From NCBI GenBank assembly GCA_001662655.1, contig KV460228.1: a stretch of 64,000 nt of DNA; one strand, written 5' to 3'. Positions 44,992 to 62,046 of this stretch are shown here, piece after piece. The position numbers were made by a program, and so were the translations under genes. How positions within the stretch are numbered: the first letter of the stretch is position 1; each line of letters starts with the position of its first letter. Below the pieces are notes generated by a model. It searched no databases and was not told the DNA's origin. It saw nothing but the letters and a program-made list of their open reading frames with translations. This DNA is from Pseudogymnoascus verrucosus. Taxonomy: Eukaryota.

Positions 44992-45195
44992 TGGGCGGTG
45001 AGGTCGTGGTTGTAGTTGTAGTTGAACAGCGCAGGTCGTTAATATGAGAAACTCGCCACCCTTGAAGCAAGTCTGAACCAGCACCGATTCGAGTGAAGTA
45101 AGCAAGACCTCTCAACATCGGCTCTAGTATCCGCACGCGATAGCTCAGTAGTATTGTATTTGATGATTGCTCGAGACCGAGGCATCATCCGGAGC

Positions 45196-46517
45196 CTACA
45201 AAGCCTTGAGCACATCTGCACCATCACGAAGACCTCCATCAACAAAGACTTCAATACTGCTGAGAACTTCGCGGTAATAGGTACGGATCTCTAGAAGAGT
45301 TAGGAGGGAACTCGGAGATCCATGGCTCTGTCTTCCTCTGTGATTGCTCAGGAGAACACCTTGGCATCCATATGCAGCAGCTAATTTGGCATCCGCTGCG
45401 GACTGGATTCCTTTGAGAACGATGGGCCCAGCCCATTCTTCTCTGATCCACTTCAAATCTTTCCATGTCAGGCTAGAGCTTAACTGTCCTGGCACTGCCC
45501 TACCTCCAAACGCTGGCGCGAAGCTGTTCTCACCTCACGCTTCTTTGACAATAGGTTTGGCTTCTTCTTCGACGCCCAATTCCAGGGCTTCTTGTGCTTG
45601 AAGGTACCGCGGTGCGTTTACCAAGCACAGGAGCGTCAACAGTAATCCACAGGCCCTTATAACCTGCCCTTTTCACCTTCTGAATGAGAGCCTTGGCTCG
45701 ATTTCGATCGGTGGAGATGTAGAGCAGGAAGTATAATTGTGCAGGAGCGGCGACACTACGCCCTTTCTGTTGGTCCACAAGAGTCTGCATGATTTCCTCG
45801 GCTGGCTTGGACGAAGCTGTGCTGATCACAGTGTGCACCCCTTTAGGTGTGACTCCCTTCACCAAGCCAAATTCTGCAGACGAGTGAGCCGAGCCCAAGG
45901 TTCCCATGGATGATACAAAAAATGATATTGTGAGGCATGGCCAAGGATGGACCTTCGCATGTCGATGGTCTCCACGTCTCATAGAACACGTGGGCGGAAA
46001 GATATGAGGGACCAATCATCCAGATTACGTCTCATGGATTGGCCCGAGTTAGCGGTGGCAGAGGCGTAAACCCAAGACTTGTTGGAGAGGATAGCCTTGG
46101 CCGGCGCTTCAAAGTCCGAGACTCTTACACAGAGAGATAAATGAGGAGGTGTATTGTCCTCACCAGTTGGGACCGACTGGGTCGAGGTTGACTTAGCCAG
46201 TGCCATATCCTTTGCCGTATTTGGATCCAGAGGACCTAAATGGCTGCCAGCTGGGAGCTGCTCTACGTAGTCTGGGGAATGGTACATACGCCGCCGTTGC
46301 ATCCTGGCGATAAATTTATCAATATGAACTAACGAAAAGCAAAGGAAGGGTGGCAGTGGAACCACGTGTGACATACGGTGCCTGCATTCCTCAGCAGGAT
46401 ATTAGCGCCTCCGGGGTGCTGAGAGAGAAACGCCGTGATATCGTATACTTGGAGACCGATAACGATCCAACATGACTCCTTTGACGAGTGGACCGCCACT
46501 TCAGCGCCGGTTAACAT
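45196..46517 (-). pseudogene. Flavocytochrome b2-like (cyt b5 + FMN-dependent 2-hydroxy-acid dehydrogenase) pseudogene
   Basis: CWIVI..VYDITAFLSQHPGG heme domain, FRPRVL, ITVDAPVLGKR, IVLKGIQ, SNHRGRQ (canonical SNHGGRQ) and DGGLRDGADVLKAL. Stops at 45979, 45535 and 45196; frameshifts near 46285, 45920 and 45610; C-terminus truncated. Confidence 0.88.
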
Positions 46518-46785: not shown

Positions 46786-46814
46786 TCGCCTCGCATCGCC
46801 TCGCGTCGCCTCGC
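46786..46814 (+). promoter_or_regulatory. (TCGCS)n element in the cyb2-like/transporter divergent promoter
   Basis: TCGCC TCGCA TCGCC TCGCG TCGCC TCGC; 46794-46808 matches the reverse complement of 55633-55647 exactly. Confidence 0.6.
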
Positions 46815-47129
46815 TATCTTCATCCCCACTCCCTTCCGCGCGCCTCCTGACCACATGGCGGCGTCTACCCCATACTCCGGACTCCAGACTCCATACTCCA
46901 TACCCCATATCCCGGGTTTGGGCTCCTGACTGCAGACTCGGCACTCCACAATTCAAATCTAGTATGTCTGTGCATTTTGACTGCTGGTTACAAATGCCGT
47001 CGATTCCTGCATCTGAAAATCCCAGCTTGAACCACTCGACTATGAATTTTCAATCTTGAGAATTACCATTATCAACACTGCTGTACCATCATCTCTTCCA
47101 CCCTTCAGTGTTTTTGTACGTTGTTCATC

Positions 47130-49230
47130 ATGGGTGGCTTTCGTGCTGCTGAAGATAGGCCTACGCCCAAAGAGGTTTATAACTGGCGCCTCTATACCGA
47201 AGCCATCATTATTGCTACTGGATCTCTACTGTGAGTTCGACACATTCTCCACTCCTCCACTTACTGATGACCTCATCTTACAGATTTGGCTATGACTCTG
47301 CATTCATTGGAACCACTATCTCCCGCACTAGTTTCAAGAATGACTTCGGCATAACTGCTGCCACAGCCAACTCTATATCCAGTAACATCACCTCTGCCTT
47401 CCAAGCTGGCGCCTTTTTCGGTGCTCTTTTTTGTTTCTTCAGTAAGTCCTATTCAAATTCACGTTCGCTATAATCCCTAATCCTCTTTCTCTTTTAGTTA
47501 CCGAGCGTCTTGGCCGGAAATGGGCTCTCCAAATCAACGTCGTCGTCTTCATTATCGGCTCAATTTTGATGACCGCTGCAACTAACCAGCTCTCGTTCAT
47601 ATGTAAGCCCCCCTGACACCCTCAATTAGCAAGTATTTACTAATGATTAACGTAGATGTGGGACGGGTTCTCACAGGACTGGGTTGCGGTGCTATCACGG
47701 CGACTGTCCCCAGTTACATTGCCGAGCTATCCATTCCATCCATCCGAGGAATGCTCACTGGCTTATTTGAAGTTGCTTACCAGATTGGTTCCGTCATTGG
47801 CTTCTGGATCAATTATGGAATTACTCAAAACATGTCATCCAGCTCGCCGAACAGCTGGAGAATCCCGATGGCTTTTCAGCTTGTCCCATCAGTTGTGCTT
47901 CTCATAGGAGGATTTTTCCTACATGAAAGTCCTCTCTGGCTCATGCGCAAGGATAAGCTCGAACAGGCTCACAAGTCTCTGGTGGATTTGAGAAAGCTGC
48001 CTCTGGAGGATCCTTGTAAGTCTTACCAGGTTTCAACTGTAGCTAAAATTAATGTCTGTAGATATTCAAGAGGAGCTTTCTGCCATTCGCTCAAGACTTC
48101 TGGAAGAGGCAGCCGTTTCGGGCAAGTACGGGACCGGTGCCTGGGCATTTTTCAGGGGTGCCATGGATGAGTTCTCCCAGAAGGGTATGAGAAATCGGCT
48201 CTTTCTCGTCTTCTGCGCTTTCTCTCTGGCAAATCTCTCTGGTGCATCAGGTATGTTTGACTTTCAGTTCTCTTTCAGATAAATAATCTGGATACTAATA
48301 TCTAGTTAGCGATTAATTACTACTCTCCAACGCTATTCGGATCCCTAGGAATTACTGATGTTGCACTTTATACTGGCATCTATGGTCTGGTCAAAGGTTT
48401 ATATCCAATCCATTTAAACCCATGCAAATTTCTAATATAAATACTAGCCATTGCTTCGATTATATTTTACGTCGGGCTTATTGACAAGCTTGGACGACGT
48501 CGCCCTGTTATTATTTCATGTTTTGTCTGCTCACTCTGTTTGTGGATTGTGGGTTCTTATGTCAAAATCGGCCACCCAGCTTCTATTATCAAAGAAGGAG
48601 GTGTATTGTCTGCATCTACGGCTGCCGGCGGCAAAGCCGCGACAGGAATGATTATGATCTATGCCTTCTTGTAGGTTCAAGTGGGCCATCCCATTCTCCA
48701 AACTTGATTGCTAATCATGAGCCTAGCTGGTCCTTCGGTTTGAATGGTATCCCATGGATCGTTTCCGCCGAAATCTTTCCTGGTGCTCTTCGAAACTTAT
48801 CTGGAACCTATACTGCTCTTGTGCAATGGTAAGTGAAGCTCAAGTTAAGCCGTGCGAACTTGAAGGAGAAGCTAACAATTTTTTGTTTTGCAGGGCTACC
48901 CAATTTGCTATCACCAAGGCCTTACCCTATATTTTTAGTTCCTTTGGCTTTGGCACCTGGTATTTCTTTGCCGCCTGGATGCTAATTGGCACGGCATGGG
49001 CATTCTTCCTCCTGCCCGAGACCAAGGGTCTTACGATCGACCAGATGGACCTGATTTTGTATGTCTTTCTCCGATCCCTTTCTGCAAAAAACTTACTAAC
49101 TTTTCGCAGCGGTTATCATAGTAGCGAACGCGTCGGGATACCACATACCTCGATCAGCCGCCGCTATACCAACATGAACCAAGACAAGGCAGGTGTAGAA
49201 GAGACTGAGAATGTTGATGAGAAGGTTTAA
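47130..49230 (+). CDS. MFS sugar-porter transporter, quinate permease (QutD/Qa-y)/sugar-acid type
   Basis: MGGFRAAEDRPTPKEVYNWRLY, FGYDSAFIG, ERLGRK, PSYIAELS..IRG, ESPLWL, DKLGRR, PWIVSAEIFP and PETKG; about 9 introns. Confidence 0.9.
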
Positions 49231-49909
49231 GAAATGATACTCCAGTGAGAGTTTTAGGGCAAAATTATATAGCTTCTACCTAATGCTCATATTTAACGCA
49301 ATATACTTTTCTAATATGTGGAATGAGACCCTTTGCCAAGTTACTACGAGATTTTTAAATAGGCTAATGACGAAAACTTTGAAGTTGTAGGCCCATATTG
49401 TGGTACTATCAATGTAGTATGGCGAGGGCAACAAGGGAATGGTTTTGTTTTATTATACGCAGCAAATGTTGAGTTTATTATTAAGTCAAGCTTATCATGC
49501 CGCAATAGCCATTCCTGGGGCATACTCTCTCTGATGTGCTCAACTCCCTACACCTACTTCCTCTACCAACGACATTAGTAGTTTGGGGTGTCTGTCTTAT
49601 CAGCGTAACGTCTTCCACTACAATGGTGCCGCTAGATATTGGCCTACGATCACATCCCTAATCCTGTCGCTTCATGAGTCCGTAATTGTGAGGCTGAATT
49701 CCCCGCTAAATTCTACGTAATACCTAACAACGCAAATAAATCCAATTTATGCGCTTCGCTCCCCATTCACGACATTGAGGAGTATCTGCGTGATTGATGC
49801 ACCTGAGTCGCCACCAAGAAAAATACCCAGACCTGTAGTGACGAGGATAGAACCGTTGGCAGTGAGCGACGCGACCACAAGGGACTCGATGAATACCCCG
49901 CACAGTGGC

Positions 49910-49929
49910 TCGCGTCGCGTCGCGTCGCC
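49910..49929 (+). promoter_or_regulatory. (TCGCG)3TCGCC element upstream of the aldolase
   Basis: TCGCGTCGCGTCGCGTCGCC, with an inverted GCGACGCGA at 49866. Confidence 0.55.
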
Positions 49930-50378
49930 CTGGGGAAAACTTCCCCGCACTATGTACCCCGCACCCCTCTCCCCCCTCATCCCTATGGATGATCATGACT
50001 ACCTATTACCATTTTAACAAAACGCGACCGCCAGTTAAAACTTCATATTTACGGTTTTTCACCAAAATTGCCTGCTAAAAGTGGATATCTACGAACTTCA
50101 AAGTAGCAGGTCACTGCGATCATTCACGAGGGATGGTGGGGGGTGGGGGTGGGGGTGGGGGGACACCCAACATGTAGGTGTGAAAGAAAGGGCTGACGAG
50201 AGACGACTACGTATGGTCTGAATTATCGTTTAATACTCACCTGCAATCATTAAAGCTGAACTATTTCATATTCTCTCCTGGCTCACTTCTGACTCTTCAT
50301 CATCACTTTCATACATACGAAGACCAATTAGTTTTATATCAACTGTACTAAGATATCTTGCTTTCAATAACGAACATC

Positions 50379-51542
50379 ATGGCAGTCTCTAAACTCAACG
50401 GAACGAATGGAACAGATGCACAGGCCGTAGGCAAAGCGTTTCCTCCTGGAGTCCATGTCCCCAGCTTGACATGGTTTGCCGACAACAAGACTCAAGAGAT
50501 TGATTGGGAAGTGCAAACAAGGCACATCCGCTTTCTAATTGAGTCAGGATTACACGGCAGTATGTTCTCTGCGCTGAGTAAACTCTGGGGACTTGAAATC
50601 TGACTTCTTACAGTTGTCATCGCCGGTACCAATGGAGAGGCGGTAACGCTCAGCTCCTCCGAGAAAGCTCAACTTATTAAGACAACACGCGACCAAGCTA
50701 TTGAGTTGGGTCGACCGGAACTGCCTATCACTGTTGGATGTGGTGGAGGATCGACAAGACAAGTGATTGAGGATACACAACTGGCAAAAGATTCTGGCGC
50801 TGATTTTGCACTCGTCTTGGTGCCGAGTTATTTCCACTTTGCCATGAACGAAGATGCGATCGTGGGATTCTTTGAGGAAGTATGTAGCCGGTCATATGTG
50901 TCTGACTCCATTTACTGACTGCGTTAATTTGTAGCTTGCCGACGCGAGTCCTATTCCTGTACTCATCTACAATTTCCCGGGAGTCGCAGCTGGCCTCGAT
51001 GTCAACTCGGAGATGCTATCAAAGCTAGGCGAACATCCCAATATCGTGGGAGTCAAGTTGACATGTGGTGGTATTGCTAAAGTTTCTCGGATACGAAACC
51101 AATTCTCTCCAGAACAGTTCTGTGCACTGGCTGGTCAAAGTGACTGGTTGTTGCCAGCAGTCTCTGTCGGTGGCATTGGAACCATTACAGGTCTTGCCAA
51201 CATCTACCCTAGAGTAAGTTTCATCTGGTTTCGAGCCCAATATTACTTCCACTAAACCTCATACCTGTCTAGACCTGCATAGAACTCTATAATCTATCAA
51301 TTGAAGGCACAACTCAAAAGGCTACGAAGGCCCAAAACGAACTGGCCGCGGTTGAGTGGGGCTTTGCAAAAGGCGGCATCAACGGCACTAAATGGGTAGT
51401 AGCTCAGTACCTTGGGTATCCAGAGAGTAGTTGTCACACGCGCAGACCATATCCACGATTCAGCGACGCCAAGAAGCAGGCTTGGATCACAGAGATTATG
51501 AAGCCCCTCGAAGAGCGGGAAAAGACACTTGCTAACTGTTGA
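50379..51542 (+). CDS. DHDPS/NAL-family class I aldolase (2-keto-3-deoxy sugar-acid or HOGA-like)
   Basis: PPGVHVPSLTWF, AGTNGE pyruvate-binding loop, LIYNFPGV (catalytic Tyr), IVGVKLTC (Schiff-base Lys), AGQSD and GTITGLAN; three introns. Confidence 0.9.
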
Positions 51543-52100
51543 GATTTCACTCCGTGCTCGGCGAAAAGAGGGGCGCCATGGCTACCGCCACTAGTCGCCA
51601 TCCCTCGGCACTCCTACTCTGGGTCTGGCCCAGGGACAGCAGCTGTAGCATATAGAACAGTTAAAGTGTTAGAATAGCTACCTTAACATAGAATATAATA
51701 TGACTTGATTCGGAGAATACCGTCTCCAATATGGTTCTATTTCTACTTTCTATTCTCCATCGCTACGTTGAATAATCTGGGGTAGGTACTTACCCCGCAT
51801 TACTTATACCATACAAATTTGCTGGTGCCAGCAGTTTGCCAAGAGTACCGCTCGTCGACAAACATTTGCGTAGTATGTCTTAGCGAGCAGCCGTACGTAC
51901 ACTGGAACATTCAACGCTAGATGACAGTAACTTATGCGCAAGAACCTCTGGATCCTGTGCTGATTTAAAACGTCCCAAAGGAGACGAAATCAGCTTTGAC
52001 GTGTCCAGCAATGGATCTGACATTGGTTTCTAATATACTTTTTAATATACGGTATATTACTTAACCATCTCTCGTCATACACCCCGGTGTTGACGCTGGT

Positions 52101-54092
52101 ATGGCTTCCGAGGCAGCCTCTGTGGCGGGCTCTGGGGCGGGCTCTGGACCTTCTCGCCGGCTTCCTAGATCTAAAGTTGGCTGTCTCACATGTCGGTATG
52201 TACCAATTGATGCCCTCACAATAGTTATACTAAGCAATAGCTAGTCGTCGGAGAGTGAGATGTAATGAGCAAAAGCCTCGATGCTCACACTGCGAGCGGC
52301 TGAATCTAGAATGTCTCTGGAGACCAATTGCGCCACTCTCAGCTAACCAGCGGCAACATACACCACAAACTGCCACAGACCAAAGGACTTTGCCCTACTC
52401 CGATGTTGGACAATCTACTGAAACTCCGAACGCCTTTGTTCGGAATAATAATAACTTCGCTACAGTCAATAGTGATTTTAACGATACTTTCAGCTATGCT
52501 AACTTCATGTGGGATCACGAGCTGCAGAGGAGCATGGTCCAGGACAGTTGGAATGACTGGGGCATTTCGAGTGCAAGCGGTGTTACAGAAGGCATCATGG
52601 CTGTATGTATTAAACCTTGGAAAGATTGCCCAATCTATACGATATTAACATGCTTTAGGAGGCATCAAGGCCGATGGAACAGTCATCCACCTTCTCAAAT
52701 CGTCCCAACTTCAATCACGAGAGGATTATCCCTGATATAGGCCCTGCGCGTGCTGAAACAAATCTAGTCATGGCATGGAATGACTCAGGAGGCGATGAAG
52801 ACACTTCTGAGGAGGATATCTTGAAGGATTATTTCGCCCAAACAGTCGTCCCGCCAATTATTGCGCAAGTGGAGACCCAGTCGAAGTGGTCATCCACGCG
52901 TCAAATACTTATCACTATGTCAACGAACTCTAGCATGGTCCACAATGCAATCTTGGCCTTCTCAGACCTTCTCATGAAGAGAACTCAAACCGCCCACAAT
53001 TTAAGTCGCCATCGGTATTACAAACGTGCTAAAGCTGAACTATTAAGGGCACGTAAAGAGCAGTTGCTTGGGAAGGATGCTGCATCGCCAGCTTCGTTTG
53101 ATGAGATGCTTGCAGTCCTGTTCTTTCTTAGCTATATTGATCTGCTGGAGAGCAGAGTAGCCAATGCCCACGATAATCTTAAAGAAGCCTATAGTATCTT
53201 CCAGCAGATTGGCAATGTTCAGTCTCGAACGGTCACTAGGCGCCTCATTTCTTGGATACGTCTCCTAGATGCAAGGGCCGCTACTACTGGTGGCGAGGGG
53301 CTTTTTCTCGCAGAAGATAACGATGTCCTTACACAGCCTTCACCCTCATTCACCGACGGTCTAGAAGCAGGAAGCAACAGCAGTAATCACGAAGCTCTGG
53401 GTGAGACTGACATCGAGGATGTTCTTTTTGAATCCCTCTATCAACCTGGCTTTGTCTTCTTCCAAAAAATACAATCTTTCATGGGTCGTATTTCAAATAT
53501 CGACCCTTGGCATCGTTCAAGAGGGACCGTAGCAGATGAGACAGAGGTGATGAGAGTTGCTGATAAGATTTCCCATGACCTTGGGACGCTATGGGAAGCT
53601 CGCCCACCACTTATGGACTATACGTTAACAGGACAACTGGCTGCACCACACGTCTCAGCAAGCTTGGCCTACACCTTGACACGAACATTTCGGACATTCT
53701 TTGCTAACTACCATGCGTCTCATATTCACCTCCACCGTGTGGCATATAAACACCTTCCGCTATCTCCACAAACATTAAAATCCATCGCCAATATTCGAAA
53801 TACAGCGCATGACATGGTCCAGCTACAACCTGTAGCACAGGATCCTTCCCGGGATATGCTTCCTGTTAATATGCTATGGCCTTTGCTCATGTGGGGCTGC
53901 GAAGAAGACGACCCGGAGGAGAGATTATGGATTACAACGCAAATAAAAACGATGGAGACGGTGGCCACGAATGCGAATATCACAGCTCAGGTGCTTAATG
54001 AGGTACAGGCGAGGCAAGACGCACAGAGGCAGAGGATCGATGTGCGAACTGTCATGCACGAGATATTCGATTCGTGCTTTGCTATTGTTTAA
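52101..54092 (+). CDS. Zn2Cys6 transcription factor with Fungal_trans_2-type C-terminal domain
   Basis: RSKVGCLTCR|RRRVRCNEQKPRCSHCERLNLEC across intron ~52196-52244; second intron ~52604-52638; C-terminal MLWPLLMWGCE. Confidence 0.9.
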
Positions 54093-54221
54093 ATAGCTTG
54101 TGTGTTTTACGATGACACAATACCAGAAGTATTAGAAATGGAAGAGACACCAGTACAACACACCTGTACAACTAGCAGTGTTGTTTGTACTTTATCAAGC
54201 TCTATATTTCCAGTACAACTC

Positions 54222-55196
54222 TCATATGGGGCCAACTTCATCTGCCCAAGGGATTGCCACCTGCGCCCCTCTCTTGCCAACTGTTTTTGCAGCGGCGGCA
54301 TTTGCCTTTCGCACTGCAACATCGATGTCGAAATCCACCTTCACTGCCTCCAGCGCATACGCTCCAACAAACGTATCTCCCGCCGCAGTCGTGTCCACGA
54401 CCTCGACTTTCTTTGCTTTGACAAATCCGGAGAGGCCTGCGTCCTGGGAGTAGAATACCCCTTGGCTTCCTAGCGTGATCACTACGTTGTGTACGCCTCT
54501 GGAGTGAAAAACTCGTGCAGCTATCGGCAAAAGACTATCGTTTTTGATCTGCTCAACGCTGTAACCTGATAAGATTGATGCCTCTGTCTCATTCAGGATC
54601 AAGTGCCGTAAATTGGCGTATGCCTCTGCTGGAAGCTCGATTGCGGGGGCGGGGTTGAGTAGGATCTCAATGCCTGCTTCACGTGCTGCCTTCAGGATCT
54701 GCAGTGTTGTCTGAAGCGGTATCTCGAGTTGGAGAATTAATAGCGATGGTTTTGGATTGGGGATCGTGACAAATAGTGATGGTGAGAGAGAGTAGTTTGC
54801 TCCACCGTTAAGAAGAATTCGATTCTCGCCTGTTGATTCTTCGACAAGAATAATTGCCACTCCCGTTTCAATTTCGGTTTGTATCGTGATGCCGGATATA
54901 TCGACGCCGCTAGCGCGCAGGTTGTTTAGTAGAAGCTGCCCATGCTGGTCGTTTCCTACTGCGCCAATCATGCGGATGTCTGCTGAGCCATTGTTTACAT
55001 CATTCCTTGTTCTCGACAGCTTTGCACATGCCGCTGCTTGGTTACCGCCCTTTCCTCCTGCGCCAGTCTTGACTGATCTGGCATGAAGTGTTTCGCCGCC
55101 GCTAGGTATCCTCGAAGTATAGGTTGTTATGTCTGCATTAAGAGAGCCAATGATAGTGATGAGTCTAAGGGGAAGAAGAGATTCATGGCTCGCCAT
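54222..55196 (-). CDS. RBK1: Ribokinase (PfkB family)
   Basis: IIGSLNAD, GGKGGNQA, LQLEIP, LNPAPA, LNETEA, ITLGSQG and DTTAAGDTF; intronless, 324 aa. Confidence 0.9.
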   Translation of the reverse strand: MASHESLLPLRLITIIGSLNADITTYTSRIPSGGETLHARSVKTGAGGKGGNQAAACAKLSRTRNDVNNGSADIRMIGAVGNDQHGQLLLNNLRASGVDISGITIQTEIETGVAIILVEESTGENRILLNGGANYSLSPSLFVTIPNPKPSLLILQLEIPLQTTLQILKAAREAGIEILLNPAPAIELPAEAYANLRHLILNETEASILSGYSVEQIKNDSLLPIAARVFHSRGVHNVVITLGSQGVFYSQDAGLSGFVKAKKVEVVDTTAAGDTFVGAYALEAVKVDFDIDVAVRKANAAAAKTVGKRGAQVAIPWADEVGPI

Positions 55197-55531
55197 GTTT
55201 TTATAGTGTAACAGAGAGCAAATACCAATTGCTCTGTAAAGTTGATTATAGAAATGTGCAACAGTGGCTCAAATCGGTGTCAGATAAATGTCTCACTGAA
55301 AGGAATATTTAAAATAATTAAGTTATTAAATATAAATGGCGACGTACGCTGTTATGCTTATTACGAGTGTCACTTGCATGTTTGCAACTAGTATAAATAG
55401 TAAAGCAAAATAGTCTTTAGCATTGGTAATATTTCTGGCACCTCGGAGCCTGGCTCGCCACCCTTCAGACAGTGAGGCTTCTGTAGTCACACTTGCAAAA
55501 CTCGCCGCTCTGCCGGTGCAACTAGTTTAAT

Positions 55532-55647
55532 CGACGCGATGAGGCGACGACAGGTGCTCCCTAGTAAACTATTGGATGTCGAAACCATAGTGAAAGGAAA
55601 GTGGGGGAAGTAAGGTCAAGTGTTAAAATAACCGACGCGAGGCGATG
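55532..55647 (-). promoter_or_regulatory. Two (TCGCS)n-type elements upstream of ribokinase
   Basis: Minus strand CATCGCCTCGCGTCG (55633-55647) and TCGTCGCCTCATCGCGTCG (55532-55550). Confidence 0.55.
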
Positions 55648-56043: not shown

Positions 56044-59000
56044 CTAACTGGAAGCACCTTGCTGGCACCATTCTATGAGTGCGGTTAGAGTCCCGACCGC
56101 CCTCCGACTATCCCCCCACCTTTTCAACTCCATCAACAACTTACGCCCCTCGATTAGTACGCGCATTGGTCCCCGCGCGCCACACAGATTCCCCACCCCC
56201 GTAACAACTGCACGCATTCCCCCACCCTTCTTCACAAACAGCTGAACCAACTCATCATCTGCCGGCCGATCCAACCGCATTAACGTTGGAAACAATGCGT
56301 CCACGTCGTCCTCGTCCTCGGGCGACTCCCCGTCTTTCAACGCTGGTGTATAAGTCGCAAATGTCCCATACGCCCACATCGCGAGAGTAGCGAGGAACAC
56401 CCCGGCCGGCTCGTAGAACGCGTCGGCTGAGTAGCGGCGTACATGCCAAAATAGCACCCCTGCATGGATCATGGCCAGGCGCGCTTTATACTGGTCCTCC
56501 TGCGCCCAGCGGCGGACGTAGTCCTGCATGCTAGCCAACTCAGCATCGGATGCTGGTATAGCTTCTCCGGCGCGGAAGCTAGCCAGACCCACAATGTGAC
56601 TCAATGGCGTGAGGAGGACGACGCGGGCGAGGTGGAGATGTAGGACCGTGGGGTGTTCCATCCCAGAAGCGACACCAATGACGCTGTTAGCATGCCAGTG
56701 TAGGATGTCGAGGACGTCGCAGGCCGAGTTGCGCCATTTGGCATATGTCGAAATACCAGGGAGCCAGACAGGCATAGACTTTTCTATAATGCTTATACTC
56801 TGCTTTTCTGCTTTCGGGCTCCAGAGAGTGAGGGGCTGCTGGAAGAAGGCTGCTACTTCATGGGTTCGCCGGAAGAGGGCATGAATGCAGAGGATACGGC
56901 TGAATTCGCCCATAGACGATTGGAGATGCTTCTCCACGTATGCGAGTTGGATGGCGGCATGTAGTGAGGGGTTTGCTAAGGCTTCGTAAGCATTCTAGCC
57001 TAGAGTTGACCTCGGGAGGTAGGCTTCTTACGTGTAGAGGCTCCGTAGAGCTGCTGCCAGTCAAGTGCGGACTCGGCCTCCCAAAGGACTTCCTGACACG
57101 GTAGGGGAACTCTGGCATCTTCCAAGGTCAGGACTGAGCGTGCTCTAAAGTGAAAGCTCGACATGCAGTCTAACATCTACAAAATCGCTTGTTAGTTGGC
57201 CCGCTAAGCTTGCCACGTAAACGTACCCATACGCAGTATCCAGTCCGGCGACGACTTTCTTCCTTGTACCAAATTTTCCAGCCATTGCTTGCCGTGGCTA
57301 AATTTCCAGACAGATCAGAGCCGGTTGGCGACGTTGATGAAGCCCATTCGCTGCAGCAGAAATAATTAAAATCGCTTTGGTATGCACTAACAAATCTCTT
57401 CAGACGTGTGTCACCACCATACGAGATCCCAATAATGTTAAGTAGCTTAGCTTGTATTAAAACTAGCCCGTCAGGTCTTGCACCATCGTCGGCTTCAATC
57501 TGTTCACAAGAATGGTCAGGGCTTCACTTAATCGATGGAGTGGCTAGCAATTGGAGCTTACAACAGTCTGGATTGCACGACGTGTAAATTCATGCATGGC
57601 AACGATGAAAATACCATTGTCTTCGGATTCCATGTAATGGCTTCCGATTGAGGCCAAAGACAATACTAGCAGCCAGTGCATTGTCGATAAATCGAGCGTG
57701 GGATGGTGTAAAAAAGGGAGAATTGGTTGGAAATTATCCAAATAAAGGAAAACCAGTTGGCTGAAAATTCTAATAGGGGGAAACGTTTCTCTTGCAAACG
57801 GTGAGTAATGTGTACTTATAATACACGTCTGTTTGAATACTCGAAGAATCTCATTATATGTTGTGTGCGGGAGCTCTTTGATGTTGGGGGTGGAGTTCTC
57901 GAGACGTTCGCTAACCTCTGGGAAGATGAATCCGTCACCATGCATTGCATTCTCATGGTGGTGTGTAGGTGTAAATGACTCGGTCCTATATGGTGCCTTA
58001 CGGACTCGAGGTAGCCGCGCACCGTCTCCATCAATATAGAAGTGGCCAGCAGACGGTGTGCTTTGTGACCTTTCGGCGCCTTGATTCCCTATCGGAGATG
58101 GGTAACTGTGAGGGGAACTCCGTTCTTGGGGTGATGACATGTGTAATGCTGCGTTCTCATATGTCATAGCACAACTCACAGCGCCAATTCCAGGTGCATT
58201 CCCGAGAAGATGAGAAGGCCTCTGATCAAATGGTTCGATGCCCGCGTCTCTGTCCTCCATAGGGAAGTCTGGTGTCCAAGCATCTGACAGCCAGTTTATG
58301 GACGAGAAACCATTTTGATACCACGGCTCCGTGGCTTGGGTAGGTCCGTGGTAATCATTCTGTGTATTTGGAGGCTGGGAGACTGCCGTATTTTGAAAGC
58401 TAGGACTGCTAGGCAGTGGGGGGTTATTAGAGCTGAAAATTGTCTGATTTTCAGAAATTAGAGATGAGATGTTCATTGGCGACTGAGACTCTGCAACATG
58501 GAGTTGGGCTCGCAATGGAGATATTGGATTATCAAATAAGTGGCCATTCTGCGCAGAGTGGCCGTTGTACCTGATTTCAGCACCACTCTTAGGGTTCAAA
58601 GTATGCTCACCTACACCAGCTTGGTCACCAACGACTGGGCGGTAACCAATGTCAAGGCCCTTGGAGGCAACCGGCGACTGAGAGGCATTGGACCAGGACA
58701 TGATCGATCCATGGGGACTCGCTACCATATGCTCGGCGCTCGAGCCATTCGACGCTTCCTCAGGAGTTGAGGTCAGATTCTCCGGCCGGCTCTTGCCCGC
58801 CGCGGGATACTGGCACTCGAGGGAGCGCCTCTCGCAGGTTGAGCACGGGGTCTGGCCGCTGCACTTTGTCCGTGACGCGGCGCAGGAAAGGCATGCTCGA
58901 GCCCCCCTTCCAAGCGCGCTACGCTTGGGCTCGGAGTGAACCTTCTCATGGCGCTTCAGGGCGTCGCTGCGGCTAGCTGTTAGACCGATAATATCACGTG

Positions 59001-59230
59001 CTTCGATGAAACAGAACTGAAGCTGACCCAACTTACAGTCTGTAGAAGCCCTTGCGACAGTAGCTGCATTGCAGGTATCGCTCAGTCTTGTGACTACGCG
59101 CGTGGCGAGTGAGATGCTCGACGCGTCGGAATGCATAGTGGCACTCGAGGCACTTGAAGGGCCGCTCTAGGTGGCTCCTCTGCGCCGCATCGAGAGCGTT
59201 TATGCTGAGTCTAGCGCTCTGATCTATCAT
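56044..59230 (-). CDS. Hybrid transcription factor: two C2H2 fingers + Zn2Cys6 cluster + Fungal_trans domain
   Basis: FKCLECHYAFRRVEHLTRHARSH, CSYCRKGFYRL|DALKRHEKVH, ACLSCAASRTKCSGQTPCSTC..C, FQPILPFLHHPT and LPCQEVLWEA; four introns. Confidence 0.9.
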
Positions 59231-59878
59231 GGATAGACCAGTTAGTAATGGAGTAGGAGTTCAGAGGCGGGCCTCCAGAGCTTGCTTACCCATGTCCGGC
59301 ACGGTCTACCAGTCACAATCACCAATTATAAGGGCGATTGGTAGTCGTTTAGTCGTTTAGGTAGGGGTTGGAGATAGAGTCTTCGGGTTCCTGTGGGGGA
59401 AGGGACCAGCATATACTGTCTCGTTCTGCCTCTGTCTCACGTGCCAGGTAGAGTTGACAGGGTTGACATCAAAACGGCACTCGAACGGTATTGTTAGAGT
59501 TCTGTAATGGTGTATTAGGGGAAATGCGCGCACACATTGCATGTAACCGGGGTAGATTTGGTGGTGCTCGAGTACCGCCCAGGCCCCGGATCTGCCGCTC
59601 AAGCTGTTGTTGCCCTGAATGGCACCCCCATGCTTGGTAGGTAACCCCACCGGAGTTACCCCGCATTCTAACATCTACAGTTGTGTAAGCGGGTCCCCCG
59701 ACGACCCCACATCGGACGGACCCTGCTTTCCTTTCCGGCCGGATAAGAGCTTCTACGAATATCGTGACGATAACGATTCTGTCGTCAGTCACGCGTCACG
59801 GTACATCGACAAATTTGAGTTTTAACAACCGCAAGCAAGTCTATTCTATGTTCAGAGTGTACTGTACTATTCTAGCTA

Positions 59879-62046
59879 CTATGACAACCTCCTCATTCCT
59901 ACTCGCATATGGCCCTTTCCGCCACGATTGTCCCTCAGCGCGTAAGGAACAAAGTTTAGCTTGTCGACCTTTACATCACTCTCCTGTGTGGTAGATCCAC
60001 GAGGCAATTGCGGGGCGAGACTTGCATCAACGCTGAGGAAAGACGCACAGTTCTGCCCGGTCAATGCGACATATGGCTCTCCCGTCCCTGGAATTGACGC
60101 TTCAGTCTCAGAAATAGCCGCCGCAGGATCAAGAACAAGGCTCTTAAAATGGTCATTCACCCATGGGTTATCGACGTCTTCAAGACAGTAAACCAGAGGC
60201 CCTCTCGCCAGCGCTATGATGTCCTGATTCGTGTACGGATGCGGAGACACAAATCTCGACTTCAAAGGAATGTTGAGTGTGAAGTTCGGATTATCCCTGA
60301 GCCAATCCGCAGGAAGCATTAAGTATCCCTTCACAACTTGAGGGCTAGGTAAGTCTGGTGATATCTGGAAACGGATTAGCATTGCTCGGTATCTGTTCTC
60401 GGAGACGCACCGTCCACTCAGTTGCCCAACCGGGAATTCGGAGGTTGATTGTCGTCGGCACATCGGATGCATTCCTAACAGCAAATTCCATCTTCCCTTC
60501 CCACGGCCAGTTTGACACCTGCTCGATTTCGACTGTGGCGCCCCCAACATCGACAGATAGCGTTGCCGAGGAGTACATGTGGACGTTCACGGATAAACTT
60601 CTATCGTCCACTTTCGAGGTCCACAGATATCCGCCAACGTACCCAAACAATCGAGTGACATTAGGGGGACAACAAGCGCAAGTGAACCACTCAGCTCGCT
60701 GTGACAAGTCAGTATCAGTCGATGCGAGCTGGTTGACATATGTGAATCGCTTCCCGTCAGCAGACATTCCTGTCATAACGGCATTGTAAAAGCACAGCTC
60801 CATGATATCGGCGACTTTCCCGTCCAAATCGAGCTTCACAAAAGTTAGTCGTCCGTGACAATCGTCAGTAATATGAAACCCACCTGAAGTAATCTCTCCG
60901 CGAGCATCATGACTCCAATTCCTGCACAGGTTTCGGCATAGCATCCGCCTTCATCGGTTCCGGATGGGAGGAAGTAATCGATTCCGAAACCCTCCCACTG
61001 CTTATGTGCTCCAACCCCCCCCGTCAAATACATCTTCTTATCTACCATATTCGACCACAGTCGCTCCAGAGCGTCTCGCTTAGGCTTGTTGTCTTTCGAA
61101 CCGTCGAGCCGGACGAGATCGGCCACAGCCGTGAGCAAATACATCGCCCGCACGCTGTGCCCTTCAATGGTAGGCTGATCGATGATAGGTTCATGTGCTT
61201 GATAGTACTGGTACGGCCTCTCGGCAGGCCAATACACCATCATGTCATGTGGGCTCTCTCCTCTCTCCTCGGCTTCGACATCAAAATAGTGCCGTCCACC
61301 CTGTCCAGTTGGGTTCCCACGCTCTTCGATGAAATAACGAGCGAGATCTAGATGTCGAGAATCCCGTGTATGTTCGAATAAGCGGAGAAGTGCCAGTTCG
61401 ATTTCTGGGTGTCCAGGGTAACCATGCCTATGCTCCGGGCCTGGACCAAAGGTTTTGTGTAGCAAATCGACATACTTGAGGATTGGCTCCATGAGATCGT
61501 CGGTACCATAGTGCTTGTTATGCGCAAGCGCAGCTTCGATGAGATGACCAGCGTTGTACCTGCCCGCAACCATGTCAGTAACCGTACTTACTAATTTCGC
61601 AATATCTTCAAGGGTGGGGACAAGGCATCTTACAATTCATGAAAATCTCGCAAGCACACAAAACGCTTCTCAGGAGCCACGACAGTGAAGTGGATGTTGA
61701 GGTACCCATCCGGCTGTTGTGCTGCGCGGATCATGTCAACCAGCTCCTTCACAGCGCCATCGATAGTCTCGTTGTGTTTCCAGAGCAGAAAGTAGCAGGC
61801 GCCCTCAATCCACTTCGCAACGTCGGAGTCCCAGAACAGATGATTTGGGACTGGCCACACGTTTGGTTTATCGTTGTAGGAAGGGTCCCATTGCAACTTG
61901 AAGGCATCGTAGCGGCCTGTCGACTTGAGGACGTCAAGTTGGTAGAGTAGGGTGCTTTGGTAAACTATTTCGCGCCGGCGGCTGATGAAAGATGGCTTGG
62001 GAAAGGTAGTATTCGAAAAGGCCGTCTGTGGGTGTGCGTGTGCCAT
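59879..62046 (-). CDS. GH127 glycosidase (beta-L-arabinofuranosidase family), no signal peptide
   Basis: FWDSDVAKWIEGACY, HEL|YNAGH, GHPEIELAL, GHSVRAMY, YAETCA and WFTCACCPPN (Zn/Cys-nucleophile site), RGPLVYC, PYALRDNRG; three introns. Confidence 0.92.

Follow-up and report, generated by a model that had tools for sequence, protein, structure and literature searches.

Period-5 arrays of TCG(C/G) half-sites as candidate activating sequences of a small Pseudogymnoascus verrucosus gene cluster

In the fungus Pseudogymnoascus verrucosus, genes for a sugar-porter permease, an aldolase, a Zn2Cys6 transcription factor (TF) and a ribokinase-family kinase form a cluster, and short TCGC-rich repeats precede the permease, aldolase and kinase genes. 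This raises the question whether the repeats are a shared regulatory element and, if so, which protein would read them. The window analysed here is a 64,000-nucleotide stretch of contig KV460228.1 (assembly GCA_001662655.1; G000:C23:124001-188000 in our numbering), part of a 30.17-Mb fungal genome. The element is built of 2-6 head-to-tail copies of a TCG(C/G) half-site at 5-bp intervals, has the core TCGCGTCG and occurs in either orientation. Sequence comparison indicates that the arrays are likely upstream activating sequences read by the clustered Zn2Cys6/Fungal_trans_2 protein, whose binding we infer.

Arrays in the promoters of the cluster

Six TCGS-N units (S, C or G) with a period of 5 bp lie at 46786..46814 (+ strand), in the one promoter between the permease gene and a divergent, broken flavocytochrome-b2-like gene. 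This array contains the 15-mer CATCGCCTCGCGTCG at 46794-46808, 322 bp from the permease ATG at 47130. The same 15-mer recurs on the minus strand at 55633-55647, 437 bp from the ribokinase ATG at 55196, within a three-unit array TCGCC-TCGCG-TCGG (55632..55647, - strand, ~437 bp upstream). The aldolase promoter carries a four-unit (TCGCG)n array at 49910..49929 (+), ~450 bp upstream of the ATG at 50379, and a motif scan placed a two-unit site, TCGCGTCGC, at 49866..49874 (-), in the opposite orientation. A degenerate second site in the ribokinase promoter (55532..55550, -) has the core TCGCGTCG at 55532-55539, 335 bp upstream of the ATG. Each of the three main arrays has the sense orientation for its own gene, and 15 of the 17 units in the window are TCGC, 16 being either TCGC or TCGG.

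An initial annotation of the window had reported the two 15-mer copies, their common orientation relative to the genes, the aldolase array and both variant sites, and each is present at the positions it gave. It had also seen no comparable arrays in other promoters, and the 61.4 kb of the window outside the cluster promoters holds no three-unit array and 6 two-unit matches. The element is likewise absent from the TF's own promoter, so the TF is probably not autoregulated through it.

Counts across the genome, which may be lower bounds, gave 2 matches to the 15-mer, both inside the cluster. With up to one mismatch allowed, TCGCSTCGCSTCG gave 8 matches, where shuffled sequence averaged 0.13 (maximum 2); genome-wide it matched 23 times at 20 loci, 3 of them within the cluster's 9 kb. 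The permease array is the longest TCGS-N array detected in the genome, with three overlapping four-unit matches, the runner-up locus having two. The three-unit pattern TCGSNTCGSNTCGS matched 73 times at ~60 loci by hand count, 3 of them in the cluster, and its reversed control 78 times, so this class is not enriched genome-wide; it is neither common nor enriched across the genome. The probability that all three 600-bp promoters carry an array by chance is ~1e-9 to 2e-8, for a pattern picked after the data had been seen and with 54 background loci, the hand count of 57 leaving the order of magnitude unchanged. No three-unit array was found in 68 kb of loci from the same genome chosen independently of the motif, and the array is absent at the genome's nearest 2-hydroxyacid dehydrogenase and second ribokinase genes.

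Sixteen of the other three-unit loci were examined, among which only L062 looks metabolic, and its transporter is not of the cluster type. There, a TCGS array with spacings of 7, 5 and 5 (L062:2962; G000:C15:423261) lies in a divergent sugar porter/sulfatase promoter, as a possible unlinked target or a related factor's site. At another locus, L059, two three-unit arrays 146 bp apart (G000:C2:985024 and 985170) lie upstream of a kynureninase-like gene. The aldolase promoter of the window also holds a (GGGGGT)n run at 50129-50167.

The element and its period in related clusters

Scanning metagenomes with a TF alignment of 43 sequences yielded 32 related loci; near-identical loci were reduced to single representatives, leaving 20 of the 32 in the array count. 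In most of the 32 the aldolase gene adjoins the TF gene, often together with a ribokinase and a sugar transporter and in varying gene order. The TF-aldolase pair is also found in named genomes (BP5553_08456/7, FOCG_11543/4 and VTK73DRAFT_2513/4), where two gene models merge the two genes.

Among the promoters of enzyme or transporter genes in the ribokinase-bearing loci, 14 of 15 contain TCGSNTCGS, where shuffled sequences gave a mean of 1.0 and a maximum of 4. This count leaves out a 28-bp stub (0 matches), sequence lying downstream of the L035 aldolase (1 match) and the promoter of the L035 dehydrogenase (0 matches); counting the last gives 14 of 16. Three TCG at period 5 occur in 10 of the 15 (shuffle mean 0.08), and TCGSNTCGS is found in none of 14 regulator-only promoters. 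An unbiased tally of the distances between TCG triplets in these ribokinase-bearing promoters peaks at 5 (40 observed, 4.8 expected) and 10 (18 observed, 4.9 expected). Over the 20 loci, 12 three-unit arrays were found in 18.4 kb of promoters and none in the remaining 172 kb. De novo, the top 8-mer was TCGCGTCG, present in either orientation in 10 of 12 promoters of the window's clade, and the next six were its variants. Sites use both strands and lie ~150-620 bp from the ATG. In L026, L029, L032 and L033 the element precedes a different transporter family, ~30% identical to the window permease; since it also stands upstream of this replacement family, it tracks cluster membership and not promoter ancestry.

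The proviso that the repeat might lack conservation in related promoters is thus set aside by the 14 of 15, and the proposal that a shared element ties the cluster together stands insofar as the element marks the transporter and enzyme promoters and is kept in related clusters. The exact 15-bp identity adds little beyond the core: the 15-mer is absent from the arrays displayed for related promoters, which have TCGCGTCG in common. Neutral pentanucleotide microsatellites arising by slippage, with a coincidental 15-bp match, would account for the (TCGCA)n and similar runs found elsewhere in the genome and for array lengths of 2 to 6 units, and slippage may indeed shape copy number, since length varies over that range. 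As a full explanation it is highly improbable and largely refuted by conservation. The three-unit class is not common and the units are mixed, not pure; the arrays recur in the otherwise unalignable promoters of rearranged clusters and are absent from the rest of the loci. These promoter pairs barely align apart from the motif, which is where 42 of the 66 pairs have their best local alignment. The sense-strand placement of all three main window arrays would also suit a 5'-leader element acting at the RNA level in the three mRNAs, a reading whose chances are very slight: the element is on the antisense strand in the related ribokinase promoters of L026, L027, L028, L029, L033 and L045.

Among the relatives' units, 35 of 62 are TCGC and 22 of 62 TCGG, 57 of 62 in total. 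The initial description of the repeat as CGC/CGA rather than CGG, and hence possibly non-canonical, was therefore overstated; the half-site is less non-canonical than claimed because TCGS is known for AflR and TCGG for TerR. Its unusual features lie in the 5-bp period and in how long the arrays run, and not in the half-site itself.

The period differs in a sister clade. In 15 promoters of ribokinase-free loci, TCG distances peak at 7 (30 observed, 5.5 expected, shuffle maximum 12), with clear period-7 arrays in L040, L043, L053 and L057, so that the spacer between CGS triplets is 2 nt in the window's clade and 4 nt in the sister clade. The aldolases of these four loci form one clade (support 98) apart from the window's clade (98), and the TF tree agrees for L040 and L043; both are quick trees, with L053 and L057 left out of the TF tree for low coverage. 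With a single split, co-evolution of period and TF is not demonstrated. The zinc cluster of L043 is nearly identical to that of the window TF. On the rather doubtful broader reading given below, in which one TF family reads both periods with nearly identical zinc clusters, the spacing would be determined by some feature beyond the zinc cluster. Mixed arrays (7,5,5,5 in L027; 6,5,7,7 in L040; 5,6,5,5,6 in L029) suggest that the spacing rules are loose.

The candidate reader of the arrays

The clustered TF (52101..54092, +; Pfam Zn_clus and Fungal_trans_2) is a 3-exon model of 628 aa, and its nearest named relative is a Pseudogymnoascus protein at 89% identity. In 44 sequences the zinc cluster has an invariant RSxxG basic lead-in and is followed by ~100-200 unconserved residues, with no conserved heptads after Cys6. 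A linker so long and unconserved, with no coiled coil, makes it probable that every zinc cluster contacts a single half-site, in the manner of TerR or AlcR. About 57 residues past Cys6, a short FxYxxFMW island is kept in 42 of the 44 relatives, the rest of the linker being unconserved. The clustered TF would bind half-sites through separate zinc clusters, filling either neighbouring units (5 bp apart) or every second one (10 bp), and the arrays would serve as upstream activating sequences of a small catabolic regulon.

Upc2 binds a TCGT-type site and dimerises through its C-terminal domain. It combines a Zn2Cys6 cluster with a C-terminal ligand-binding domain (PDB 4N9N, 7VPR), as the cluster TF may do, going by its predicted domain, and the title of 7VPR names a bound small molecule. 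The predicted C-terminal domain of the TF has a mean pLDDT (predicted local distance difference test score) of 74, and in structure comparison it comes closest to the Upc2 ligand-binding domain (Z 14.1, root-mean-square deviation 3.8, 154 aligned residues), a modest match whose score lies within 1 of that of an unrelated chain. Upc2 itself senses sterols, and the cluster TF is likened to it through the 141-154 aligned residues only. Such an Upc2-like domain would serve as the sensor for a metabolite of the pathway and might also keep a pair of zinc clusters together.

In arrangement the element departs from the TerR as well as from the AflR site. The TerR site of the Aspergillus terreus terrein cluster is TCGGHHWYHCGG; TerR monomers bind TCGG direct repeats, two CGG half-sites with a 5-nt spacer at period 8 (PMC4360782). 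Like TerR, the system here has a cluster-specific Zn2Cys6 factor, a DNA-binding domain without a coiled coil (here from alignment) that is probably monomeric, and direct-repeat half-sites with a 5' T in target promoters. The half-site with a favoured 5' T (third base relaxed to C/G), the direct orientation, a preferred distance and the use of either strand are all shared. Unlike TerR sites, the arrays belong to a catabolic cluster, repeat TCGS (mostly TCGC) 2-6 times at period 5 and lack the 5-nt spacer. The AflR site is TCGN5CGA, or TCGSWNNSCGR, with TCGS as its half-site, and AflR requires inverted half-sites, direct repeats abolishing two-molecule binding (PMC12501005). The likeness to AflR lies in the TCGS letters and in a zinc cluster set between disordered regions without a coiled coil; the arrays in the window are direct, same-strand repeats and not the inverted half-sites of TCGN5CGA.

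Another factor might read functional arrays: the TF of L076, the second zinc-cluster TF, which sits after the ribokinase (56.0-59.2 kb), or a general CGCG-binding protein of the MBF/APSES or Rsc3 type, for which CGCG consensus sites such as the MCB box are known. We regard this as improbable. The core TCGCGTCG, when reversed, contains ACGCGA, which resembles the MCB box, and the commonest unit, TCGCG, yields CGCG, yet the 22 of 62 relatives' units that read TCGG disrupt it, and a general factor would not leave out all 14 regulator-only promoters. The second TF has just short zinc-cluster matches in related loci. L076 (G000:C15:356500-366400) is a paralogous cluster in the same genome with a major facilitator superfamily (MFS) gene, an aldolase gene and a TF 45% identical to that of the window; the zinc cluster of this TF is very similar, and two-unit TCGS pairs occur in L076 promoters, but these hold no three-unit array.

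Several observations weigh against assigning the arrays to the clustered TF as activating sequences. TerR fails on spacers shortened to 4 nt, as described in part of PMC4360782, and with a spacer of 2 nt here adjacent units may not be filled together. Some 57 further genomic loci carry three units, and the flanking genes at the 16 examined are mostly unrelated. The promoters of the related loci were delimited by hand once the motif positions were known, and every locus was retrieved via its TF, so the set includes no TF-less control. The element is missing from the promoter of the L035 2-hydroxyacid dehydrogenase gene and from the short stub at the L045 aldolase; the ribokinase-free loci have a period-5 pair in only 6 of 15 promoters and a three-unit period-5 array in none of the 15, and no clear array was seen in L049 and L050. 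The same genome encodes, at L076, a TF paralogue whose zinc cluster is very similar, and Foldseek returned no significant match for the C-terminal domain.

Cluster genes, possible substrate and meaning

The permease (47130..49230, +; Pfam Sugar_tr) is an MFS sugar porter with a 10-exon spliced model of 536 aa and an open frame. The aldolase (50379..51542, +; Pfam DHDPS), a class I, pyruvate-type member of the DHDPS family, has a 4-exon model of 331 aa and belongs to its own well-supported clade in a genome with four or more diverged paralogues; 3QFE and HOGA are the best PDB matches of a close relative. The ribokinase-family gene (54222..55196, -), a single exon of 324 aa, is one of three paralogues detected in the genome. 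Permease, aldolase, TF and ribokinase are thus each an open spliced model or a single open frame. The broken flavocytochrome-b2-like gene (45000..46517, -, low end approximate; Cyt-b5 and FMN_dh) has several frame changes and in-frame stops and was rejected as a core cluster member, with 0 matches across the 32 related loci. One relative's contig is collinear with the window across the cluster; small insertions at three places within the b2-like gene, in a relative's ~95% identical contig, indicate that its decay may be recent.

Other observations concern related genes. The DHDPS paralogues at L074, L075 and L077 adjoin a dihydroxyacetone kinase and dehydrogenases, an enolase-superfamily gene and another Fungal_trans_2 TF, and no three-unit array is found at these loci. 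A D-2-hydroxyacid dehydrogenase gene lies within the clusters of L035, L045 and L049. In the window, the second TF, a GH127 gene (56044-62046, -) and a divergent sugar porter (62690 onward, +) form an adjoining cluster without the element; GH127 takes in an aceric acid hydrolase of rhamnogalacturonan II (RG-II), according to part of PMC13501991.

What the cluster would degrade can be approached from the families of its enzymes. The chemistry of DHDPS-type aldolases implies a 2-keto-3-deoxy acid. Going by this family chemistry, a 2-keto-3-deoxy sugar acid would enter through the permease and be split by the aldolase into pyruvate and an aldose, which the ribokinase-family kinase would phosphorylate; the TF would switch on uptake, aldol cleavage and phosphorylation jointly. 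In Aspergillus niger, GaaR is the pathway-specific activator of uptake and catabolism of the pectin sugar acid galacturonate, and GaaC is the DHDPS-type aldolase in that pathway. The likeness to GaaR/GaaC is one of roles, drawn by description and not by GaaC or GaaR sequence.

Cleavage of 3-deoxy-D-manno-octulosonate (Kdo) gives pyruvate and D-arabinose. A tentative candidate for the substrate of the family is the Kdo or 3-deoxy-D-lyxo-heptulosarate (Dha) of RG-II. In L040 and L053, both of the period-7 clade only, a secreted GH143-like protein (L053:2961-4274; L040:5020-6048), from a fungal family of 98 matches, is encoded beside the aldolase and TF. The family profile matches the N-terminal propeller of BT1020, its Dha-hydrolase domain (PDB 5MQR), distantly at E 2.4e-9; the single L053 sequence had no PDB match. 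BT1020 is a GH143 Dha hydrolase of RG-II, as given in part of PMC13501991, and the GH143-like genes hint at catabolism of pectin RG-II Dha/Kdo. The promoter of the GH143-like gene has a five-unit period-7 array in L053 and none in L040. A KDN (2-keto-3-deoxynononic acid)/sialidase assignment for the L053 protein was rejected, since the profile favours BT1020 (E 2.4e-9) over sialidases (E 0.007 or worse).

Two results count against the RG-II reading. A search of the window's genome with this query found no GH143-like gene; GH143 is absent from many fungi, according to part of a preprint. The kinase retains all seven ribose-binding residues and the A98/I100/I110 lid, which disfavours D-arabinose in E. 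coli ribokinase (PMC9604405, in part). The position after K43-G44 in the kinase is G in the window's clade and A in L045 and L087. Fusarium oxysporum depletes Kdo from culture, in a bioRxiv preprint whose main text names no aldolase or ribokinase, and its TF and aldolase genes are adjacent; Kdo being depleted and the TF-aldolase pair being present, the cluster is a concrete candidate for the F. oxysporum Kdo pathway. That the TF family governs fungal RG-II Kdo/Dha catabolism, reading TCGS arrays with a clade-specific period (5 versus 7 bp), is a broader proposal that we consider rather doubtful.

No publication was located on the cluster, its Fusarium locus tags, or TCGCGTCG with Zn2Cys6 proteins, in a search whose coverage leaves out most subscription journals, and no fungal genes for RG-II Kdo/Dha catabolism were located in the literature searched. 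A cluster-specific zinc-cluster site is a familiar kind of element; new here are its tight period, the length of the arrays and a period that changes with clade. For a fungal regulator that is widespread and without a description in that literature, the arrays give a candidate binding site and regulon of three genes. Their 5-bp period is tighter than that of the TerR and AflR sites, and the two periods of the sister clades, 5 and 7, offer a natural experiment in how spacing is selected by zinc clusters that have no coiled coil.

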